64,000 nucleotides of DNA. Source: a virus. Taxonomy: Duplodnaviria; Heunggongvirae; Uroviricota; Caudoviricetes. Positions 10,751-28,100 of this stretch are shown in pieces; the stretch's first letter is position 1; each line of letters opens with the position of its first letter. Both the position numbers and the translations under genes were made by a program. The stretch lies in IMG/VR virus record IMGVR_UViG_2718218133_000001; one strand, 5' to 3'. Below the pieces are notes generated by a model. The model saw only the letters and a list, made by a program, of their open reading frames with translations. It was not told the DNA's origin and did no database searches.

Positions 10751-11394
10751 GCAAGATTGATTATCAAAAGCTTCGTGAAATCGCTGAAAAAACAAAAATT
10801 GCTGGTGAAGCACCTGTAATGCCTTTCGATCAGCGAATTAATGCGCTTAACGATTTTATGAAGCACTTTTCGCCAGATATCGCGCTGGCATTGTTGGATG
10901 AACGGGAAAGAAACCAGCAATACATCAAACGCCGCGACCAGGAGAACGAGGAAATTGCGCTAACGGTAGGGAAGCTGCGTGTTGAGCTGGAAGGCAAAGA
11001 CAGCAAAATAGCCAATCTTACCGCCGAACGCGATGCTCTTCGTGAAGGTGAGATGGGCGACGCTAGGCATAGCAACACACGGGCCGCAGCTGATATCTAC
11101 TTCCAACTGGTCGAGGAGTGCGAAATTCCTGCTGGCGGATCTCTGGTCGAGTACGTTGACGATATGCGCGAGAAGCTGGAAGCCGCAGAGAAGCGCATTG
11201 CAGAGTTAGAAAGTGGTTCTCAGGCACAAAAGTTAGTTGAAGCAATCATTGTTGCGATAGAAAACGAACAGGAAAGGCTTTTTGATGAAGATTACCTAAT
11301 GGATTCGAAAGAATGCATTGACGTAATTCGTGAAGAAGTAAAGCGATGGAATGATTCCCGTGCCGCTGGCATTCGCATCAACGGAGGTGAGTAG
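10747..11394 (+). CDS. hypothetical coiled-coil protein (Ead/Ea22-like composition)
   Basis: 215 aa; E/K-rich helical sequence. Confidence 0.4.
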   Translation: MSKIDYQKLREIAEKTKIAGEAPVMPFDQRINALNDFMKHFSPDIALALLDERERNQQYIKRRDQENEEIALTVGKLRVELEGKDSKIANLTAERDALREGEMGDARHSNTRAAADIYFQLVEECEIPAGGSLVEYVDDMREKLEAAEKRIAELESGSQAQKLVEAIIVAIENEQERLFDEDYLMDSKECIDVIREEVKRWNDSRAAGIRINGGE

Positions 11395-11756
11395 TGCGTG
11401 TGGCATGTATCGGCTTGTTACCGTACCCGACTCGTTTTTGGGCTTCTGCGCTAATTGCAAAGCCACATGTCCTGATGGCTGACAACATCATCCCGGCACC
11501 AAAGCGCCGCCATACCGGTATTGCAGCGGCACGACGAGCAGCAAAGAGACGCAGGAGAGCAAAGCGATGAAAAACCGTAAAGCAAAGATTCTGTTAGTTC
11601 GTAGAAACGCTCCTGGCGTCTGGCAGTGGGTGAGACTCAGCAACCGACGGATGGGGTTAATGAAACATTACGGGATGATGGATTGTGGTTTTTGCAAAAA
11701 GCCCAGCGCGGCGCAAAACCGCTGGAAAAACCACTTGCGTACTAAAGGAGAGTGAT

Positions 11757-11966
11757 ATGGCTATCGCTGCAAGTTACACCATGCATCTCTATTGTGACTG
11801 CCGTCAGTGCACGGAAGGTGTATATCCAGTGCCAGACTTCGGTGAGTATATAGGTACGTCATGGGCTGGCTGTGCAAAAGAGGCGCGCAAGGATGGCTGG
11901 CGAATAAGCAAAGACAAAACGCGTGCTTTTGCGCCCGGGCATAAAGTTTTGAGGATTAACAAATGA
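11757..11966 (+). CDS. hypothetical Cys-rich small protein
   Basis: ATG with aaggag RBS inside the 93-aa track ORF; CDCRQC motif. Confidence 0.35.
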   Translation: MAIAASYTMHLYCDCRQCTEGVYPVPDFGEYIGTSWAGCAKEARKDGWRISKDKTRAFAPGHKVLRINK

Positions 11967-13240
11967 CCACTATAACCAAAGAGCGACTGCTGACAATCAA
12001 GCAGTGGCGCGAAACATACGGACCGGGTAGCAACGTTGTACTGCCAGCAGAAGAAGCGGAAGAACTGGCACGGATTGCTCTGGCATCGCTGGAAGCAAAA
12101 CCAATAGGTGCATTCCACATTGCAGAACAGCAAGTTGACGGCACAAGTGACTACCTCAAGGATGGAGAATGGCCTATTGATAATGGAATTATTGAGGTCT
12201 ACGCCGCTCCCCCCGTTCCAGTAGTACCGGAAGAAAAACCAATGCCTAACGCTCTAAGCATGCTTGAAAGAGAGATCACACAACTGATTGGTGATGCGCA
12301 GGAAGCCACTGTTACTGGCTATGAGTTAATCGCTGAAGCTTGGCGTTTGATGGATGGACAAGACCCTAAAACCAGCGATTGGCATAGCAAGGCTTCGAAG
12401 TATTTAAATTCCAATATTGTAGAAAAAGTTGATGATGACCGTATTGAGGCTGTTAAGGCTGTTTTGCGTAGACTGGCTGGCAACTCTCCGGTAATTCCAG
12501 GTGAGGTGCTGTCAGCAATTATGAAGGTTGCCAGGGTTCGTGCCGATTTCGATGATTTTGACGGTGACAGGCGAGGTGTCGGTGATTGTCTGGATGAGGC
12601 TGAGCAAGAGCTTATCGTTACCATTAACAAATATGCCAGTCAGTTGGCAGCAGAACCGATAGCGACTAATAACGTTCGAGAGCAGCAGACAGCCGTTCCG
12701 CCAGTTCCGGAAATACAGGATGATGTCGCGCAAGCAATTGAAAATCTCAAGCAGAAGTTAGTGGAATGCAATCGCTATAACTACTGCGCAGATGCAGTTA
12801 AAGGCGTAGAGGATGCCTGCCACGCTGCCATGCTTCAGGGTAGCCAACCTGTAAGCCAAACTTACAAGTTGCCAGTTAATACACCTTGCCAAGATGCGCC
12901 AGCCCATATCTGGCTGCAAACGGCTGGAGTATGGCCAGAAGATGGCGAGTTAAGCGAATTAACGTGGTGCAGCCACAATCAGCACCATGATGACACGCTA
13001 TATGTTCGAGCTGACCTTGTGAATGGCAACTCTCCGGTAACTCCGGATGGTTGGATAAGCTGTAGTGAGCGAATGCCCGCTCAAGATGATTGGATTTTAA
13101 TTTATTCAAAGCACGGTGAGTATATGGCAGGACAGGTGCAAGGGGAATACGTAGAGTTGAGCGACGGCACTTTATCGTGGTTAGGGAACGCCTTGTTCTG
13201 GATGCTGCTACCAGAACCTCCCCAGGAGGCAGGTCAATGA
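11963..13240 (+). CDS. hypothetical protein with DUF551-like C-terminus
   Basis: 425 aa; C-terminal PDGWISCSERMP..WILIYSK segment resembles the phage DUF551 module. Confidence 0.45.
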   Translation: MTTITKERLLTIKQWRETYGPGSNVVLPAEEAEELARIALASLEAKPIGAFHIAEQQVDGTSDYLKDGEWPIDNGIIEVYAAPPVPVVPEEKPMPNALSMLEREITQLIGDAQEATVTGYELIAEAWRLMDGQDPKTSDWHSKASKYLNSNIVEKVDDDRIEAVKAVLRRLAGNSPVIPGEVLSAIMKVARVRADFDDFDGDRRGVGDCLDEAEQELIVTINKYASQLAAEPIATNNVREQQTAVPPVPEIQDDVAQAIENLKQKLVECNRYNYCADAVKGVEDACHAAMLQGSQPVSQTYKLPVNTPCQDAPAHIWLQTAGVWPEDGELSELTWCSHNQHHDDTLYVRADLVNGNSPVTPDGWISCSERMPAQDDWILIYSKHGEYMAGQVQGEYVELSDGTLSWLGNALFWMLLPEPPQEAGQ

Positions 13241-13304
13241 GCTGGCCTGAAGCATTCGCAACGGTAGGAATTGTGATGGCGGCAGCACTGGGTTTGTATT
13301 CAAT

Positions 13305-13556
13305 TTGTCGCTGGTGGTAACGATGGGAAAAATAACTTTTGTAGTCGAATTTGAGGATGGCAAAGAGCCACCTGTTAGCGCCAATCTTGATGTTGCTGGT
13401 GGCAGGCTTGTTTCGGTTCTATTTGGTGACTACCGAGATGACTTCTTCCAACCAGAAGAAGTTGATGTAGTGCGAGAGGCATTAAACGAGTTAAGTGTTG
13501 ATAACGATGATGCTCATGCGGAAATCATCCAAAAAATGGAACTGCTAACTCACTAA
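13305..13556 (+). CDS. hypothetical small acidic protein
   Basis: 83-aa ORF. Confidence 0.3.
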   Translation: MSLVVTMGKITFVVEFEDGKEPPVSANLDVAGGRLVSVLFGDYRDDFFQPEEVDVVREALNELSVDNDDAHAEIIQKMELLTH

Positions 13557-13604
13557 ATTATCAATTATGGTGCTATCACCTACGACACCGAGAGAAAATT
13601 TATA

Positions 13605-13727
13605 ATGTCAAAAGTAAATGTTTTGATTTTTTCAGCAATTGTTGGCTTTGGTTTTACTGCCGGAGTGCAGATTTATATTACGTGGGAAAAAATCATCAAC
13701 TACGCATGGAGTTGTTTTATTAAGTGA
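13605..13727 (+). CDS. possible 40-aa hydrophobic membrane peptide
   Basis: MSKVNVLIFSAIVGFGFTAGVQIYITWEKIINYAWSCFIK; below the track size cutoff; weak RBS. Confidence 0.25.
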   Translation: MSKVNVLIFSAIVGFGFTAGVQIYITWEKIINYAWSCFIK

Positions 13728-13734
13728 GGTAAGT

Positions 13735-14028
13735 ATGTGGAGAGGTAATAGTCATGGCAAAAGCCAGATGATACTTACCGAATATCAGTTTGACCATAAA
13801 ACCAATAAATCACGTTCAGTATATTTGCTTCGGCACAATAGCCGCGTAAGGAATACCGTGCTGGAGCAAAATCTGACTGTTGAAATGGATAATTACGGGG
13901 GCTTCAAGCCAACAATTTCGCTTGATGATTTTCCTCGTGGTTTAAGCGAAAGAGAAGCAATGCTGAAATTAGCAGAATGGCTACAAAGATTAAGCATTGC
14001 TATTGAAGATAACTGGTCTGAACCTTAA
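13735..14028 (+). CDS. hypothetical protein (AT-rich)
   Basis: ATG with GAGGT RBS inside the track ORF 13639..14028. Confidence 0.35.
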   Translation: MWRGNSHGKSQMILTEYQFDHKTNKSRSVYLLRHNSRVRNTVLEQNLTVEMDNYGGFKPTISLDDFPRGLSEREAMLKLAEWLQRLSIAIEDNWSEP

Positions 14029-14034
14029 ATTTAT

Positions 14035-14409
14035 ATGATGACACTAAAACATTTTCTTGACCGCCCATTATGGGCGGCAGCCGCAGGCTATGACTTTAAT
14101 TATATGGATTGCATGTCTTATACCGCCAATGCATACGACCATTCCTTCAGTCTGCTGTTTAATTCTTTAAGAATATTGCCGCAAACAGAAGTTGGAGAGC
14201 TTCATTTATGGCTATTGGGCTTTATCGCGGCTGTCGTTGGTATTGCTATATGGCCTTTTATTTTCTGGCTGGTGGCTGTTGTAGTGTGGGTTAAGTGCAA
14301 GACATACCGGAAAAAGTATTTCTTAGGTGATGGAATGACTGATATTGCCAAAATGAACATTGAAGAATGGACTAAGGAATGTGAAAAGAAATGGCGCAAA
14401 AAGAAATGA
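14035..14409 (+). CDS. hypothetical membrane protein
   Basis: 124 aa; hydrophobic stretch LWLLGFIAAVVGIAIWPFIFWLVAVVVWV; Lys-rich C-terminus. Confidence 0.4.
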   Translation: MMTLKHFLDRPLWAAAAGYDFNYMDCMSYTANAYDHSFSLLFNSLRILPQTEVGELHLWLLGFIAAVVGIAIWPFIFWLVAVVVWVKCKTYRKKYFLGDGMTDIAKMNIEEWTKECEKKWRKKK

Positions 14410-15041
14410 CCAGAATCACTGAAGAGCGCATATCAGAGATTATTTCCCGTATCGAAATGTATGGTCACGGTGCTGGATATACGGCAGATGAAGTATTGGA
14501 AATAGCCCAGCAGATGCTGGCCTTGAGACAAAAAGAGCAACATGAAAGTAATACGTGTAGATTGAATTTTGAGCATTGGCTGGAACAGCAACGCGGGAAA
14601 ATCGATGTGGACTGTGGTTGTGTGTCCACTGAAACATTCATGCACTGGCTGCGGGTAGCTTACGAGGCTGGCAACTATCCGGATATTCCGGATAGTTCGG
14701 TGCCAGCACCAGGAAAGGGCGTCACCGGTGAACGTATCCGAATTAAGCCGCATGTTTATCGCGAACTGGTTAACCGTCTCCACGATACAGCGATCAAGTG
14801 TGCTGGCACCCAGCAATTACGAGAAAGAATTAGCCGTGTTTTGGGCGACGTTATTACACCAGATCATCATAAACAAGCCGAGAAAAGTGGCCTGGAAAGG
14901 TGTCGCCTTGAGGCGGCATTAAACATTAAGCCGGGGCATACGCTTGGCATTATTGATGCACTATTGGTTCATAAGATGGCCAGGGCTTTATTGCCGCTGG
15001 TGGCTGAAAAGCATGAGGTGGACCATGCCAACGAAAGCTGA
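14391..15041 (+). CDS. hypothetical protein
   Basis: 216-aa ORF. Confidence 0.4.
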   Translation: MAQKEMTRITEERISEIISRIEMYGHGAGYTADEVLEIAQQMLALRQKEQHESNTCRLNFEHWLEQQRGKIDVDCGCVSTETFMHWLRVAYEAGNYPDIPDSSVPAPGKGVTGERIRIKPHVYRELVNRLHDTAIKCAGTQQLRERISRVLGDVITPDHHKQAEKSGLERCRLEAALNIKPGHTLGIIDALLVHKMARALLPLVAEKHEVDHANES

Positions 15042-15293
15042 ATTACAGGTGCGCGTAGATGAGCTTGAAAAAGAGAACGCGAGCCTCAAAAAAATGCTGT
15101 CGCGGGCGGAAAGGGAATTATCAGGCAAATTATTGCCAGAAGAACTGCCACCAGCAGATATACCTGATCGAGTGTCCTGGTGGATGAAGTATTTCCGTGC
15201 ACCGTGGGAGGCGTTTTGGTGCTACGACCATCGCAGATGGTGTGATGAACTTGATAGCAATTTTCCCTACTTTGCGGAAGGGAACACCTGCCC

Positions 15294-15644
15294 TCAATGC
15301 AGGGGATAGCATTTGACGAAATCGATCACCCTATCCTGAACTTCAGAAAGAAGGTCTTTTTCACGCGCCAGGACGTCAGGATATTGACGTTCTGGCCTTA
15401 CCAGATGCCGGAGCTTCCCATTAAGCAGAATGGCCTCAGAAAACACTTTTACGCTGTGCTTTATCCCCTCTGTTTCACTTTTCAGCGTCAAAATAAAGCG
15501 CAATTGCTTATTAGCCTGATTCGGATTCAATACACGAATTTGCAGTTCGTCTATGCTGTTCCGCAATGGGATTGATGCCACCACACTGGTGCAGTCTCTG
15601 ATTGTCTGAATTGAACGGCTAACATTGAGAACGTTATTGTGCAT
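15294..15644 (-). CDS. hypothetical protein
   Basis: 116-aa minus-strand ORF between plus-strand blocks. Confidence 0.3.
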   Translation of the reverse strand: MHNNVLNVSRSIQTIRDCTSVVASIPLRNSIDELQIRVLNPNQANKQLRFILTLKSETEGIKHSVKVFSEAILLNGKLRHLVRPERQYPDVLAREKDLLSEVQDRVIDFVKCYPLH

Positions 15645-15676
15645 GTGCCTGATCCACTAACTCCTGGAGGTTTCTT

Positions 15677-15928
15677 GTGTCAGATCGAAATATAGCAGCT
15701 AAAAGCCAGGAAGAGCGAGACAAGGTGAACGTAGACCTTGCCGCCAGCGGCGTTGCTTACAAAGAACGGCTGAATATACCTGTGATTGCAGAGCAGGTGG
15801 CCCGTGAGCAACCGGAAAACCTGCGCGCCTATTTCATGGAACGGCTACGGCACTACCGGCAGTTAAGCCTCCAGTTGCCAAAAGGGAGCGATCCGGTGTA
15901 TCAGAACGAGGATGCACCAAAAAAATAA
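15677..15928 (+). CDS. hypothetical small protein
   Basis: 83-aa ORF. Confidence 0.3.
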
Positions 15929-16013
15929 CGGCAAGATGGGGGAGAAATGTGATTAGCCCCCAGCGTGGCGCGCCTACAAACCCCGCTTTCACAAACTATG
16001 CCTTTTCAATGTA

Positions 16014-16033
16014 TACTGTATGAATAAACAGTA
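16014..16033 (+). promoter_or_regulatory. LexA (SOS) box
   Basis: tactgtatgaataaacagta fits CTGT-N8-ACAG, 19 bp upstream of the humD ATG and overlapping a -10-like tatact. Confidence 0.7.
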
Positions 16034-16051
16034 TCATTGAGGTAAAACGCT

Positions 16052-16441
16052 ATGGGCTTCCCTTCTCCTGCGGCGGATTATGTTGAAAGCCGAATTTCTC
16101 TTGATCAGCAGATAATTAGACATCCTTCAGCGACCTACTTCATGCGGGCAGCTGATAGCCATCACCGTGAGGGAATATTGCAGGGTGCTTTGCTGGTGGT
16201 TGATTCCTCGCTTACTCCGGTTGATGGTTCTCTGCTTGTGTGCGCTATGGAGGGTGAATATCGCATAAAGAGATACAGGAAGTATCCGCGCCAGCACCTG
16301 GAGGACTTAAGCACCGGGAAGAAAGAGGCGTTACCAGTAGATGACGATGGATACACGGGCAGTAATGCTGTTTTTGGTGTGATCACTCATGTCATCAATG
16401 ATGCCCGAAGTGGGGAATTTGATGATTGTCCGGTTATTTAA
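16052..16441 (+). CDS. humD: UmuD-like S24 peptidase (P1 HumD)
   Basis: 129 aa; LexA/UmuD-type C-terminal domain pattern; preceded by the LexA box. Confidence 0.8.
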   Translation: MGFPSPAADYVESRISLDQQIIRHPSATYFMRAADSHHREGILQGALLVVDSSLTPVDGSLLVCAMEGEYRIKRYRKYPRQHLEDLSTGKKEALPVDDDGYTGSNAVFGVITHVINDARSGEFDDCPVI

Positions 16442-16513
16442 GCTGCAAAGTGCTGGTGCTTTATGCCTGTGAAGTTTATAATTGTGTACACATAACGAGT
16501 ACACGAGGTGTTT

Positions 16514-25229: not shown

Positions 25230-25258
25230 ATTGCTCTAATTGATTGCTATAATTAAGC
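25230..25258 (+). promoter_or_regulatory. tandem overlapping C1 operators upstream of ref
   Basis: attgctctaattgattg and attgctataattaagcc; ref is C1-repressed in P1, as remembered. Confidence 0.55.
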
Positions 25259-25313
25259 CGCAGTTTTTGTCAACTACGAAGACGTTGCCATTACTTAACT
25301 CCTTGACATCATT

Positions 25314-25339
25314 GGCGGCCATTAGGCCGCCTTTTTTTT
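25314..25339 (+). terminator. strong intrinsic terminator/attenuator immediately upstream of the ref ATG
   Basis: ggcggcc-atta-ggccgcc followed by T8, ending 5 nt before the ATG. Confidence 0.6.
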
Positions 25340-25344
25340 GCCAT

Positions 25345-25905
25345 ATGAAAACAATCGAACAAAAACTTGAACAGCGCCGCGAGTGGCAGAAGGCAGCCAG
25401 AGAACGAGCGATCGCTCGGCAACGGGAAAAGTTGGCTGACCCCGCCTGGCGAGAATCGCAATATCAGAAAATGCGGGATTCTATCGACCGCCGTATCGCT
25501 AAACAGAAAGAGCGCCCACCAGCCAGCAAAACGCGGAAAAGTGCGGTAAAGATAAAATCTCGTGGCTTGAAGGGGCGAACATCGACAGCGGAGGAACGGA
25601 GCATCGCCAATGCTCTTGGCGCTCTCCCCTGCATTGCCTGCTACATGCATGGAGTAATATCTGAAGAGGTATCTCTGCACCATATCTCCGGTCGTACCGC
25701 GCCGGGTTGTCACAAAAAGCAATTGCCCCTTTGTAGATGGCACCACCAGCATGCAGCACCGGCTGAAGTAAGAGAAAAATACCCCTGGCTGGTCCCTGTT
25801 CATGCCGATGGTGTGGTTGGAGGCAAGAAAGAATTCACCTTGCTGAACAAGTCAGAGATGGAGTTGCTGGCTGACGCCTATGAGATGGCAAACATCATGC
25901 ACTAA
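25345..25905 (+). CDS. ref: Ref recombination enhancement function (HNH endonuclease)
   Basis: 186 aa starting MKTIEQKLEQRREW; basic N-terminus; C-terminal Cys/His HNH-like motif (CIACYMHG..HHISG..CRWHH). Confidence 0.85.
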   Translation: MKTIEQKLEQRREWQKAARERAIARQREKLADPAWRESQYQKMRDSIDRRIAKQKERPPASKTRKSAVKIKSRGLKGRTSTAEERSIANALGALPCIACYMHGVISEEVSLHHISGRTAPGCHKKQLPLCRWHHQHAAPAEVREKYPWLVPVHADGVVGGKKEFTLLNKSEMELLADAYEMANIMH

Positions 25906-26056
25906 TAAATATATTATTTTTAATCTGAAATAATTGACAACTGACAAGTGACTTCAGTCAGAATCATCACATGCCCGGTACGGATGGATCCCTTTTCAAA
26001 TATTCCATGGACGGCACAGTCTGAGTACCGGGCGCTACCTTCAGTTGTATTGCTAA

Positions 26057-26082
26057 GCCGCCGCTGGTGGCTTTTCTTTTTT
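26057..26082 (+). terminator. possible intrinsic terminator after ref
   Basis: Short GC stem (agccgcc / ggtggct) followed by ttttctttttt. Confidence 0.4.
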
Positions 26083-26094
26083 GTAGGGGGCGCT

Positions 26095-26736
26095 ATGGAT
26101 AAGAAAATATGCGTTGTTTCGATGAGCGTCGGCAAACCGGCGTCAATGACTGCTGCATGGATCAACAATGAGCTAATAATGGCTGAGCGGACCAGCTACC
26201 CTGAACGCCGCCGCGATATGGAACTCCAGCTGCTGCGCGAATTGCGAGAAAAAGAGGAAAAGGGTTTTATCGTGCTGGTGGAAGAGGAAAACAGCTTTAT
26301 TACTGGTCGAGTTGGCCAGCGTGTAAGGTTGCGCGATCCCTTCATGAACGGCAGACCGGTACTGATTGAAGCAATGCAGATTTACAAGGAATTGGAACGC
26401 CAGAAAGCGATCAAGTTACCGCGCAAGGAATCCGGCAAATACATCCTTCACCAAAGCATCTTCGATTCCGAACACGATAAAAAAGGCGATGAATTTTTCA
26501 ACATCAACTGGAGCGAAATAACGACAGAACATGTTCTGACGTTACTATGTTGCTTTGCGACGGAATACAACAACGTTGCCAGCGCCGACTACATCAGGGC
26601 AATGGTTGGAGAAGTTGAGGCCCGCCAGGAACCATCGTTACTAAGCCCTCTGATTAACATAATTCGCGGAACCCAAACGCTGGCACAAAAACAGGTGCCT
26701 AAGGGAGTATTAACAGGAAAAGGAAATTATCTATAA
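26095..26736 (+). CDS. hypothetical protein (backbone-like GC; possibly the P1 mat equivalent)
   Basis: First ATG with AGGGGG RBS inside track ORF 25948..26736; composition like the P1 backbone, unlike the AT-rich gene downstream. Confidence 0.4.
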   Translation: MDKKICVVSMSVGKPASMTAAWINNELIMAERTSYPERRRDMELQLLRELREKEEKGFIVLVEEENSFITGRVGQRVRLRDPFMNGRPVLIEAMQIYKELERQKAIKLPRKESGKYILHQSIFDSEHDKKGDEFFNINWSEITTEHVLTLLCCFATEYNNVASADYIRAMVGEVEARQEPSLLSPLINIIRGTQTLAQKQVPKGVLTGKGNYL

Positions 26737-26792
26737 ACGTCAATGCATTAGGGTATACTTCTCCGTAGAACTATAAGTAAATGGAGTAAGTA

Positions 26793-28100
26793 ATGAGCGA
26801 ATATGTTGAGTTAGCATACGCTGCCGCTACAAGCAGGCTTTGTCTATTTACCGGGACTGGCTTTTCAAAGGCAGTCTCGAACGGTGAAGCTCCAACGTGG
26901 AAGGAACTATTAAAAAAAGTTTGCAGCAAAGTTCACAATGCCAAAAAGTTGGAAGACACGTTATTCCCTGATGATAAACCACCAGCACTGAGTCTTGAAG
27001 AAGCCGCACAAATACTATCTTTGAAGCTCAATATTGAGGGTAAGTCGATTTATGATGAAATTGTTGACATCATATCTCCAATTCAACTTGGAGAAGACAT
27101 ATCAAATATAAAAGATTTTTTCCAAAAAAACTCATTCCGTGTCATTACAACAAATTATGACAAGTTGGCTGAATGCTTGGTTGGAGATGAAAGTGTGCAG
27201 TCTATCACGCCCGGCCTGCCAATTCCAAAGTATCCATCCAAGGTGAAAATATATCATGTTCATGGTTCTATTGATTCGCCAAAAAATATGATTGTCACTT
27301 CAGATGATTACTTCAGATTTATAAATTCCGATACTTATTTTTCACGAAAACTTAGTACGATGCTGCATGAAAATACAGTTGCGATATTAGGGTATTCTTT
27401 AAGCGACACAAATCTTAAAGCAATTATAAATGACTATAAAAAATTTTCGAAAAATAATGCCCTGTGCTCTAATATCTTTTTGATATCTCGCAACAAAGTA
27501 AGTCAAGATATGAAGGATTATTACTTCTATTGCTTTGGTATAAGGGTAATTGACAATACAGAAATAGATTGTTTCTTTAGTCGATTAAGTTATAAGATTT
27601 CTCTCATTAAAGACATCATTGAAAGAGCGCGCGAAAATATCAGAAAAGTTGTTTCGGGGGCTTACACTTATAAAAATGAATATCTTAAATTAGAGGATTC
27701 ATTTTATCAAATTATATCATCAATTATATCGGAAGGTTTAGATTGGAATGATGATAAAGTCGTTTCTCTTTTCGAAAGGATAATAGAAAAAAAGAGAAAG
27801 TTAACAAGGAATAACGGAGCGTGGGAGCAATATGAACAGTTGGCAAAATGGCTTATATATTTTGGAAGCATCATAGAGGTTAGCAATACTAAGTATGAAA
27901 AAACATATTTAGACGCAGTTGAATACTCGATGGGTCATATGAGTAAAGAAAGGAATTGGGGAGTTTCTTGGCATGCTTACAGAGCTTGGGAAACACGATG
28001 GCCTGCAATAATTGCCTCAAATAGATTAATGATAAAAAACCACATTGAAACATTAGGCACCTTGAAGGACGCCAACCTTATAGTTAAGAATATAGTGTAA
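26793..28100 (+). CDS. stand-alone SIR2-like (SIR2_2/ThsA-type) putative NAD+-hydrolysing defence protein with uncharacterised C-terminal domain
   Basis: 435 aa; motifs in canonical order: LFTGTGFSKA, ITTNYDKL, YHVHGSIDSP, ILGYSLSDTNL; putative catalytic Asn and His present; GGAG RBS; clearly more AT-rich than the flanking genes. Confidence 0.8.
   Translation: MSEYVELAYAAATSRLCLFTGTGFSKAVSNGEAPTWKELLKKVCSKVHNAKKLEDTLFPDDKPPALSLEEAAQILSLKLNIEGKSIYDEIVDIISPIQLGEDISNIKDFFQKNSFRVITTNYDKLAECLVGDESVQSITPGLPIPKYPSKVKIYHVHGSIDSPKNMIVTSDDYFRFINSDTYFSRKLSTMLHENTVAILGYSLSDTNLKAIINDYKKFSKNNALCSNIFLISRNKVSQDMKDYYFYCFGIRVIDNTEIDCFFSRLSYKISLIKDIIERARENIRKVVSGAYTYKNEYLKLEDSFYQIISSIISEGLDWNDDKVVSLFERIIEKKRKLTRNNGAWEQYEQLAKWLIYFGSIIEVSNTKYEKTYLDAVEYSMGHMSKERNWGVSWHAYRAWETRWPAIIASNRLMIKNHIETLGTLKDANLIVKNIV

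Follow-up and report, generated by a model that had tools for sequence, protein, structure and literature searches.

The AT-rich islet described here is optional cargo of the pmgT operon in variable region 8 (pmgT-humD) of P1-like elements. Its genes are probably dispensable early-lytic accessory genes, two of whose products would act at the inner membrane, and not exclusion or abortive-infection factors expressed in the lysogen. The basis of this functional assignment is the genomic context; homology and fold searches were uninformative. The window, the whole stretch of 64,000 nucleotides that was analysed, is by its sequence a P1-like phage-plasmid. The records closest to it are Punavirus 813R1, SJ46 and RCS47, with identities of 95-98%. 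The features are listed in Table 1.

Table 1. Features of the islet and its surroundings (positions in the window).
Feature	Position	Strand	Description
C1 repressor operator (Op88/OpmgT equivalent)	8513..8529	+	Heads the operon containing the islet; matches the C1 consensus at 16/17 positions
Accessory array	9403..14659	+	5,257 bp of same-strand genes without counterpart in reference P1 (blastn, window vs P1)
Linker motif copy 2 (GGCAACTCTCCGGTAA.TCC)	13021..13063	+	Direct-repeat family D1; on a module breakpoint
ORF77	13323..13556	+	77 aa, strongly acidic; phrog_3876, E 6e-53; just left of the interval first reported
ORF40	13605..13727	+	40-aa predicted single-pass membrane peptide; phrog_5525
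ORF97	13735..14028	+	97 aa, predicted soluble; phrog_1258
ORF124	14035..14409	+	124-aa predicted single-pass inner-membrane protein; phrog_2638
216-aa gene	14391..15041	+	Start overlaps the end of ORF124; N-terminus with Ea22-type 'ITxE(R/W)' motif
Linker motif copy 3	14666..14708	+	Repeat family D1; right joint of the block missing from P1

The islet is the 3' end of the accessory array, in which domain matches also identified a PAPS-reductase-like gene, an Ead/Ea22 gene and an EaA/DUF551 gene. In P1, the sequence corresponding to window positions 8000-9402 joins that of 14660-15006 directly, with nothing between them in the blastn comparison. The flanks (8000-9402 and 14660-16500) are 95-98% identical to the pap-pmgT and pmgU-humD region of P1, which places the islet between pap/Op88 and pmgV-hot-humD of the P1-like backbone. 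The 216-aa gene spans the right joint, and its C-terminal half equals P1 PmgU. In a Pseudocitrobacter prophage the ORF124 homologue likewise overlaps an Ea22-like gene.

The pmgT-humD segment is a published variable region of P1-like genomes (PMC9603915), and pmgT, pmgU and pmgV are non-essential in P1 (PMC10695390). Variable region 8 resembles the site of the islet in lying downstream of pap and Op88 and upstream of pmgV, hot and humD, and in its presence/absence polymorphism amid otherwise conserved P1-like genomes (PMC9603915). In JL22, pmgT is replaced by a cluster of unknown genes (PMC9603915). That paper handles the region as a block; it gives no gene functions and does not discuss the islet genes. 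Its list of low-G+C regions omits variable region 8.

On sequence evidence, ORF40, ORF97 and ORF124 are real genes and not chance open reading frames. All three match PHROG families end to end (E 1e-24, 1e-49 and 4e-63, respectively). The dN/dS values against RCS47 are 0.28 for ORF97 and 0.24 for ORF124. The AlphaFold2 models of these two proteins are confident (pLDDT 81 and 88), and 40-aa homologues of ORF40 with 45-53% identity are found in unrelated phages. The start of ORF97 is an ATG inside a mechanical 129-aa reading frame, with GAGG 5 nt upstream. ORF77 is carried as an annotated CDS in 813R1 and in RefSeq plasmids.

The islet was described at first as accessory, and its distribution bears this out. 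It lies outside the P1 core, and part of it is carried by 309 of the 679 pmgS-positive plasmids in PLSDB. At least 80% of the islet is present in 220 of these 679 plasmids (about 32%), and about 45% of the P1-like PLSDB plasmids carry both ORF97 and ORF124. It was found in 8 of 19 pmgS-positive phage records and was not found in the reference genomes P1, P7, D6 and JL22. Among complete E. coli genomes, 308 of 5426 have the islet, and 313 of its 317 places are on plasmids. Public copies, in P1-like plasmids by the hundred and in several phage records, are 97-100% identical and are annotated throughout as hypothetical proteins. The islet and its variable region are thus already known from public sequence, and the finding is an ordinary one. 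Transmembrane segments are predicted and the islet is missing from the P1 core. Accessory presence and absence together with predicted membrane helices are the opposite of what the first-pass annotation had named as fatal to its reading, namely a lack of transmembrane segments combined with homologues throughout the core.

The composition of the interval 13600-14410 had been reported to drop, and its GC content is 0.387 against 0.482 for the whole window. Only 1.6% of 811-bp windows (mean GC 0.482, sd 0.034) are as low. In a 300-bp profile, the stretch from about 13300 to about 14600 has a GC of 0.36-0.41, down from about 0.49. The low GC was therefore correctly seen, and the left border was not: the trough starts about 250 bp further left and takes in a fourth gene, ORF77. 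The sole region of the window with lower GC is at about 26.3-28.5 kb (GC 0.31). The GC3 of the islet genes is 0.33-0.42 (0.33 for ORF77), against 0.44-0.56 for neighbours in the same operon. Low GC as an intrinsic trait of these protein families was rejected, as the homologues in N15, EC.W1-9 and one N15-like contig have normal GC3. That GC3 is low in these alleles and not in their relatives points to a fairly recent arrival, presumably from a donor of lower GC.

The three proteins noted in the first-pass annotation are all present, and hydropathy predicts membrane helices in two of them. ORF40 has one hydrophobic transmembrane helix (residues 7-25; Kyte-Doolittle value of 1.83 for a 19-residue window) and a conserved motif, GFG..AG..YI.W..IN.AWS. 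It is probably a peptide of one helix whose small residues (G/A) form a packing motif, like those peptides that bind to another protein of the membrane. In phiv142-3 (Uetakevirus) and EC.W1-9 (no genus assigned), its homologues immediately follow eaa/ea22 genes.

ORF97 has no hydrophobic segment (maximum 0.21 in the same 19-residue Kyte-Doolittle window) and is predicted to be soluble. In its AlphaFold2 model, an antiparallel sheet of four strands precedes a C-terminal helix that is highly conserved. It is a member of a widespread enterobacterial prophage family, which includes N15 gp44, phiKO2 Gp43 and nin-region ORFs of P22-like and lambda-like phages. N15 gp44, 55% identical to ORF97, lies downstream of the repressor, cro and Q-like genes and upstream of the Ea22-like gp45. 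In SPN9CC and mEp235, the relatives lie between ninF and the HNH/rusA genes. ORF97 is probably a cytoplasmic binding protein that works alone.

ORF124 has the Lys-rich tail described for it: one transmembrane helix is followed by a basic tail of 38 residues, 13 of them K or R, ending in KKWRKKK. The hydrophobic run is about 30 residues long (57-86; Kyte-Doolittle maximum 2.62). The protein is composed of a conserved helical N-terminal domain (residues 1-52), the transmembrane helix, in which a P..FW motif is conserved, and a C-terminal helix that is basic. ORF124 is predicted to insert into the inner membrane. By the positive-inside rule, the basic tail would be cytoplasmic and the conserved N-terminal domain of about 55 residues outside. 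The topologies proposed for ORF124 and ORF40 are based on charge distribution and hydropathy. The ORF124 family is narrow and well conserved, with 23 representative clusters among 1.84 billion proteins. No annotated relative was found; an exhaustive HMMER search returned the small family only. Relatives with 52-55% identity lie between RNase_T exonuclease and Dam genes of N15-like contigs. One is found in an early operon of Yersinia phage P840, and another, in the Pseudocitrobacter prophage, lies between early genes and xis/int, upstream of Ea22-like and exonuclease genes.

The relatives of the islet genes in other phages are always in early operons, either of N15-like phage-plasmids or in the ea and nin regions of lambdoid phages. 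Each of the three ORFs belongs to its own PHROG and travels separately elsewhere. The four families are never adjacent outside P1-like elements, and a profile search of genome contigs returned only four loci. ORF97 and ORF124 as a two-gene system were considered and rejected, since they are neighbours only in P1-like elements.

The islet is embedded in a run of same-strand genes from 8708 to 15309 with gaps of -19 to +82 nt. The operator at the head of this run coincides exactly in position with the OpmgT annotated in P1, and the block that holds it is 98% identical to P1. C1-operator-like sites number 13 in the window, against 0.31 expected by chance. No sigma-70-like plus-strand site was found by consensus scan in or directly upstream of the islet. 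Plus-strand terminator-like sites are absent between 10001 and 14930, so that none brackets the islet, and the -22 motif of P1 late promoters is absent between 8 and 16 kb. Rfam gave no match over 12800-15200. Promoter-like sites show no excess, with 8 found versus 11.9 in shuffled sequence. A weak one (12528-12556, 9/12 matches) is located within the EaA gene upstream, and at 13601-13606 there is a perfect TATAAT that has no -35 element. Because of these two, the islet may have some C1-independent expression.

A classical moron with its own promoter and terminator was rejected, as the consensus scan found neither in or flanking the islet, though base composition differs. A holin or antiholin was also rejected. 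The transmembrane segment and basic tail are present, but the operon is an early, operator-controlled one that lacks a late-promoter motif and has no lysis gene close by.

The interval probably consists of independent modules of one gene each, placed side by side (ORF77, ORF40, ORF97 and ORF124). Modules of this kind fill the 'ea' and 'nin' regions of lambdoid phages and, in N15-like elements, the early right operon. The array would be read from the pmgT promoter, blocked by C1 at Op88; the operator and the tight packing are observed, and co-transcription is deduced from them. Since C1 blocks the pmgT promoter, synthesis of the proteins would be expected soon after infection or induction and would not take place in a stable lysogen. 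The most probable role of ORF124 and ORF40 would be a dispensable function in host takeover or competition at the cell envelope during lytic growth.

The gene sets of the lambdoid ea/exo-xis and nin regions, which consist of non-essential early genes, share with the array the Ead/Ea22 and EaA/DUF551 genes, tight packing, overlaps and exchange at gene borders. Relatives of ORF40 and ORF124 are found in the ea region, and those of ORF97 in the nin region between ninF and rusA. The three islet families are not among the characterised exo-xis genes. The control also differs: lambda-type N antitermination from pL/pR in the lambdoid regions, and a C1 operator on a P1-type phage-plasmid here. In the early right operon of N15-like elements, which are linear phage-plasmids (N15 genes 41-47), the ORF97 relative gp44 is followed by an Ea22-like gene, and ORF124 relatives occupy the equivalent place. 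In N15-like elements no more than one of the families was found at any one place; in P1-like elements the families are neighbours.

The T4 proteins Imm and Sp are small membrane proteins, made early, which shut out superinfecting phage while lytic growth proceeds. The islet proteins are like them in small size, predicted membrane location and presumed early expression. The likeness is in kind only, with no sequence or fold similarity detected. Exclusion of other phages during the lytic phase in the manner of Imm and Sp is the leading specific possibility for the two membrane proteins, though of low probability. A broader proposal is that ORF124, perhaps with ORF40, represents an unrecognised early inner-membrane family common to P1-like elements, N15-like phage-plasmids and lambdoid prophages. 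In the lytic cycle, its conserved N-terminal 'KHF.DRP.WAAAAGYDF' domain would serve to keep out competing phages or to knock out a function of the host envelope. This proposal is doubtful.

The islet could instead serve counter-defence (anti-restriction or anti-immunity), mainly through ORF97 and ORF77, which would guard the incoming or induced genome, with the membrane proteins as unrelated passengers. The genes are positioned for early expression. Relatives of ORF97 and ORF124 lie beside orphan Dam/N6 methyltransferase, DinI and exonuclease genes in phiKO2, N15-like contigs and P840, and the array also holds PAPS-reductase-like and ASCH genes. ORF77 has a net charge of -12 over its 77 residues, and DNA mimics are very acidic proteins. 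Counter-defence is rated an unlikely explanation. The searches for function were uninformative. PADLOC gave no match at E<=1 for ORF40, ORF97, ORF124, ORF77 or the 216-aa neighbour, and all matched PHROGs are labelled 'unknown function'. No match beyond noise to the three ORFs and their neighbours was found in Pfam and NCBIfam, including the exclusion and Abi families of those libraries. A Pfam scan of every member of two family alignments gave only weak transmembrane-type matches (LapA_dom, Cpta_toxin). Profile searches against PDB sequences gave no match for ORF97 and noise only for ORF124 (E 0.4-1.6). A Foldseek search of viral models (BFVD) returned only unnamed family members, and literature searches by protein accession and peptide string found no paper.

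The first-pass annotation had suggested superinfection exclusion or abortive infection, stating that small membrane proteins in accessory islets of temperate phages are often such factors. The small membrane proteins and the AT-rich accessory islet stand; the function itself received no positive support from the PADLOC, Pfam, NCBIfam and PHROG searches. In its lysogenic form, ORF124 and/or ORF40 in the inner membrane of the lysogen would block DNA entry or kill infected cells. It agrees with two of the three products being small membrane proteins and with genes that are accessory and foreign in composition. Homology searches also overlook many known exclusion proteins, which are small orphan membrane proteins. 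However, a C1 operator controls the operon in which the genes are embedded, and they have neither a promoter-like site within or just upstream nor a bracketing terminator. Their relatives are in early lytic operons, not beside repressor or immunity genes nor at the late-region positions of morons. No annotated match was obtained in PADLOC, Pfam or PHROG, and no sequence or profile similarity to the characterised SieA, SieB, Imm, Sp, Sim, gp15, Cor/Llp and Ltp types was detected (Pfam E<=1, PHROG, BFVD fold search). Exclusion by the lysogen is accordingly rated quite unlikely. The window contains a clearer defence candidate, a SIR2-domain gene pair at 25948-28100, which was also counted against it.

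The composition of the array from Ead/Ea22 and EaA/DUF551 genes suggests another role, in tuning host physiology or the choice between lysis and lysogeny, as is reported for genes of the lambdoid exo-xis region. Relatives of ORF124 and ORF40 are found in ea regions beside Ead/Ea22-type genes, and two papers describe an influence of exo-xis genes on lysogenisation and induction (PMC3824215, PMC7093339). However, the characterised Ea22, Ea8.5, Orf60a, Orf61, Orf63 and Orf73 are not homologous to the three ORFs, whose PHROG matches are to separate families labelled 'unknown function'. Lysogeny in P1 is controlled by C1, Coi and Ant, a circuit unlike that of lambda. A role of this kind is improbable. 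It is highly improbable that ORF40 aids plasmid maintenance as an addiction peptide or one resembling a type I toxin. In favour are its hydrophobic character and length of 40 aa, its place on a plasmid prophage, and two minus-strand promoter-like sites just downstream (13796->13768 and 13760->13732) as a conceivable antisense RNA source. Against it, such sites are no commoner than in shuffled sequence, Rfam has no match, the gene runs in the direction of the operon and is packed closely among its genes, homologues follow eaa/ea22 genes in non-plasmid phages, and both an IS1 insertion at its position and the lack of the gene in RCS47-type elements are tolerated.

As probable early-lytic accessory genes, the islet genes resemble the classical prophage morons (HK97 gp15, lambda bor/lom) in deviant composition, accessory status and small membrane products. 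Unlike those morons, the islet sits in a repressor-controlled early operon and not in the late region, without a promoter-like site or terminator of its own. The value of the islet is modest, as a pointer to the functions of 'ea/nin-type' early genes in temperate phages. ORF124 and ORF97 are cheap candidates for expression screens, and the islet genes call for tests in the lytic phase, not only in lysogens.

Variants of the islet include ORF97 alone, truncations and an IS1 insertion, which in pAVS0973-B interrupts the position of ORF40. RCS47 has eaa and ASCH genes in place of ORF77 and ORF40, with breakpoints at gene borders, at 13230 and 13729. The homology of the window to 813R1 and RCS47 begins at 13024/13025, within linker motif copy 2. 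At the other end, the P1 joint at 14660 lies beside linker motif copy 3.

The window is a P1-like phage-plasmid; among phage records, vB_EcoM-813R1, SJ46, and RCS47 (Punavirus) come closest to it, with 95-98% identity. The islet, the AT-rich interval 13600-14410, is already known as sequence: it is present in hundreds of public records, its region is described, and it is 100% identical in the 94.7-kb plasmid of E. coli VL7S7. The three ORFs that the first-pass annotation placed here were recovered at the same positions, and they are genes, named by their length in amino acids. They show full-length PHROG matches (ORF40, phrog_5525; ORF97, phrog_1258; ORF124, phrog_2638; E 1e-24 to 4e-63). Measured against the RCS47 alleles, ORF97 has a dN/dS of 0.28 and ORF124 one of 0.24. 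ORF40 has homologues of equal length in unrelated phages (45-53% identity) with an invariant G-F-G...A-G...Y-I.W...I-N.A-W-S pattern.

Positions of the islet genes and of other features in the window
Feature	Position	Remark
C1 operator match (16/17)	8513-8529	coincides with annotated OpmgT (Op88) of P1
GC-rich palindrome	8562-8584	just upstream of 28-aa ORF
28-aa hydrophobic ORF (MNTAFKIIMAAIYFWLFSITFGGIVAHG)	8613-8699	AGGAG ribosome-binding site; between Op88 and first gene of operon
242-aa first gene of operon	8708-9436	
PAPS-reductase-domain protein, 292 aa	9440-10318	same operon as islet; not in reference P1
Ead/Ea22-family coiled-coil protein, 215 aa	10747-11394	same operon as islet; not in reference P1
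Repeated motif (GGCTGGCAACTCTCCGGTAATTCC...), 25-43 nt	12475-12517, 13021-13063, 14666-14708	within Ea-type genes
Weak promoter-like site (9/12)	12528-12556	only + strand site upstream of islet (consensus scan)
ORF77	13323-13556	net charge -12; phrog_3876; GC3 0.33
ORF40	13605-13727	ORF list
ORF97	13735-14028	ATG with GAGG 5 nt upstream, inside longer mechanical TTG ORF
ORF124	14035-14409	ORF list
216-aa gene	14391-15041	+ strand
ref-like gene	25240-25905	
262-aa protein	25948-26736	no family match
435-aa protein	26793-28100	SIR2_2 domain

The drop in composition reported earlier is real. The GC content of the islet is 0.387, against 0.482 for the whole window, and just 1.6% of same-size windows (mean 0.482, sd 0.034) are as low. 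In a 300-bp profile, GC falls from ~0.49 to 0.36-0.41 between ~13300 and ~14600, so the trough begins ~250 bp to the left of the reported start and includes a fourth gene, ORF77. Third-codon-position GC (GC3) is 0.33-0.42 in the four trough genes versus 0.44-0.56 in other genes of the operon. GC3 is normal (0.49-0.56) in the homologues from N15, EC.W1-9, and one N15-like contig; thus low GC is a property of the alleles in the window, suggesting their arrival from a lower-GC donor.

Genes on the + strand form an unbroken run from 8708 to 15309, spaced -19 to +82 nt apart, and pmgQ, pmgR, pmgS, and pap are located upstream of this operon. Consensus scans found no + strand terminator-like site at 10001-14930 and no excess of promoter-like sites over shuffled sequence. 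The -22 motif of P1 late promoters is absent from 8-16 kb. The annotation, together with the operator, the gene packing, and the scans, indicates that the islet is part of a repressor-controlled early operon, presumably co-transcribed. Near the place of the 28-aa ORF, RefSeq annotates a 44-aa CDS in a related plasmid.

The islet is the 3' end of a 5,257-bp block (9403-14659) containing PAPS-reductase-like, Ead/Ea22, and EaA/DUF551 genes. This block is extra relative to reference P1, because both flanks are contiguous there. The P1 genes pmgT and pmgU appear to be what a 5,257-bp deletion left behind, corresponding to joints 9402 and 14660 in the window. PmgT residues 1-232 match the product of the 242-aa gene at 99% identity (NC_005856, region 4307-5376), with no further match beyond residue 232 to the protein of the 216-aa gene, while PmgU corresponds to residues 104-204 of the latter (94%). 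The pmgT/pmgU joint lies at a GGGT microhomology. The interval from pmgT to humD has been published as variable region 8 of P1-like phage-plasmids (PMC9603915), and pmgT, pmgU, and pmgV of P1 are non-essential (PMC10695390).

Exchange is also seen within the block. In RCS47, eaa and ASCH genes replace 13231-13728 (ORF77 and ORF40), and the two sequences match again from 13729, immediately ahead of the ribosome-binding site of ORF97. Some plasmids have ORF97 without ORF124. In pAVS0973-B (NZ_CP124473.1, about 700-1500), IS1 occupies the ORF40 position between the 77-aa and 97-aa genes in an islet otherwise 99% identical, indicating that loss of ORF40 is tolerated. The repeated motif encodes a G-N-S/Y-P-x-(I/T)-P linker. 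Since module breakpoints fall on two of its three copies, at 13021 (813R1 and RCS47; 13024/5) and 14666 (P1; 14660), it resembles a joint at which modules are exchanged by recombination.

As first proposed, the islet is accessory, not core. Part of it is present in 309 of 679 pmgS-bearing PLSDB plasmids, and at least 80% of it in 220 of them. ORF97 and ORF124 occur together in 8 of 19 pmgS-bearing phage records. The islet was found in 308 of 5,426 complete E. coli genomes, at 317 places of which 313 are on plasmids. Reference P1, P7, D6, and JL22 lack it.

The description of the products as membrane or hydrophobic proteins holds for ORF40 and ORF124. ORF97 has no transmembrane-length segment by hydropathy. 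ORF40 has one such segment (residues 7-25), and its small-residue motif appears to be of a type that lets helices pack against each other. In ORF124, a stretch of ~30 hydrophobic residues (57-86) precedes a tail of 38 residues, 13 of them Lys/Arg. Modelling with AlphaFold2 from family alignments gave confident structures for both larger proteins. ORF124 (pLDDT 88) is all-helical, and a continuous helix (53-97) includes the hydrophobic run. Conservation peaks in an N-terminal 'KHF.DRP.WAAAAGYDF..DC' segment, and P..FW is conserved within the membrane helix. Net charge is -2 before the helix, with 13 K/R versus 6 D/E after it; by the positive-inside rule, the tail is predicted to be cytoplasmic and the N-terminal domain outside. 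ORF97 (pLDDT 81) shows four antiparallel strands and a long C-terminal helix, where its invariant residues cluster, which suggests a binding surface. ORF77 might act as a DNA mimic or as a decoy for binding.

The ORF97 family is widespread in enterobacterial prophages (128 clusters at 90% identity). Relatives include phiKO2 Gp43 (67%), N15 gp44 (55%), and a nin-region ORF (42%) between ninF and HNH/rusA genes in P22-like and lambda-like phages. The ORF124 family is narrow: a search of 1.84 billion proteins gave 23 representative clusters. Its members lie between RNase_T exonuclease and Dam methylase genes in N15-like contigs and in an early operon of Yersinia phage P840, and a Pseudocitrobacter prophage has one upstream of an Ea22-like gene that overlaps it, an exonuclease gene, xis, and int. 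In phiv142-3 (Uetakevirus) and EC.W1-9, relatives of ORF40 come after eaa/ea22 genes. At these loci no two of the four families are adjacent, which rules out the islet as a multi-gene system. The nearest known systems are variable region 8, the early right operon of N15, and the nin and ea/exo-xis gene sets of lambdoid phages; the islet fits all three by position and homologue context. As a classical moron it fails, with no promoter or terminator of its own detected; it shows no similarity to known exclusion or defence families, and it fails likewise as a type I toxin and as a holin.

Pfam, NCBIfam, PADLOC, PDB sequence profiles, Foldseek against viral models, and literature searches by protein accession and peptide string were uninformative on the function of the islet proteins. 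The genes are probably accessory ones of the ea/nin type, dispensable and early-lytic, which would be expressed on C1 inactivation, with two products acting at the inner membrane. The leading guess at their role, a tentative one, is that they exclude competitors during the lytic phase or interfere with a protein of the host envelope. Early counter-defence, mainly by ORF97 and the acidic ORF77, is rather unlikely. Behind it comes the idea of the first-pass annotation, superinfection exclusion or abortive infection, in a form expressed in the lysogen; it is doubtful, since both its setting in the operon and the absence of any homology speak against it. Modulation of the lysis-lysogeny decision of the exo-xis kind is more improbable still, and ORF40 as a type I toxin can hardly be entertained.

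The window is most AT-rich at 25948-28100 (GC about 0.31), a far more pronounced islet situated just after the ref-like gene, where P1 presumably carries res/mod. It encodes the 262-aa and 435-aa proteins, the latter matching PADLOC models PDC-S25, ThsA, and LmuA. This putative anti-phage defence pair is the better defence candidate in the window, compared with the islet at 13600-14410.
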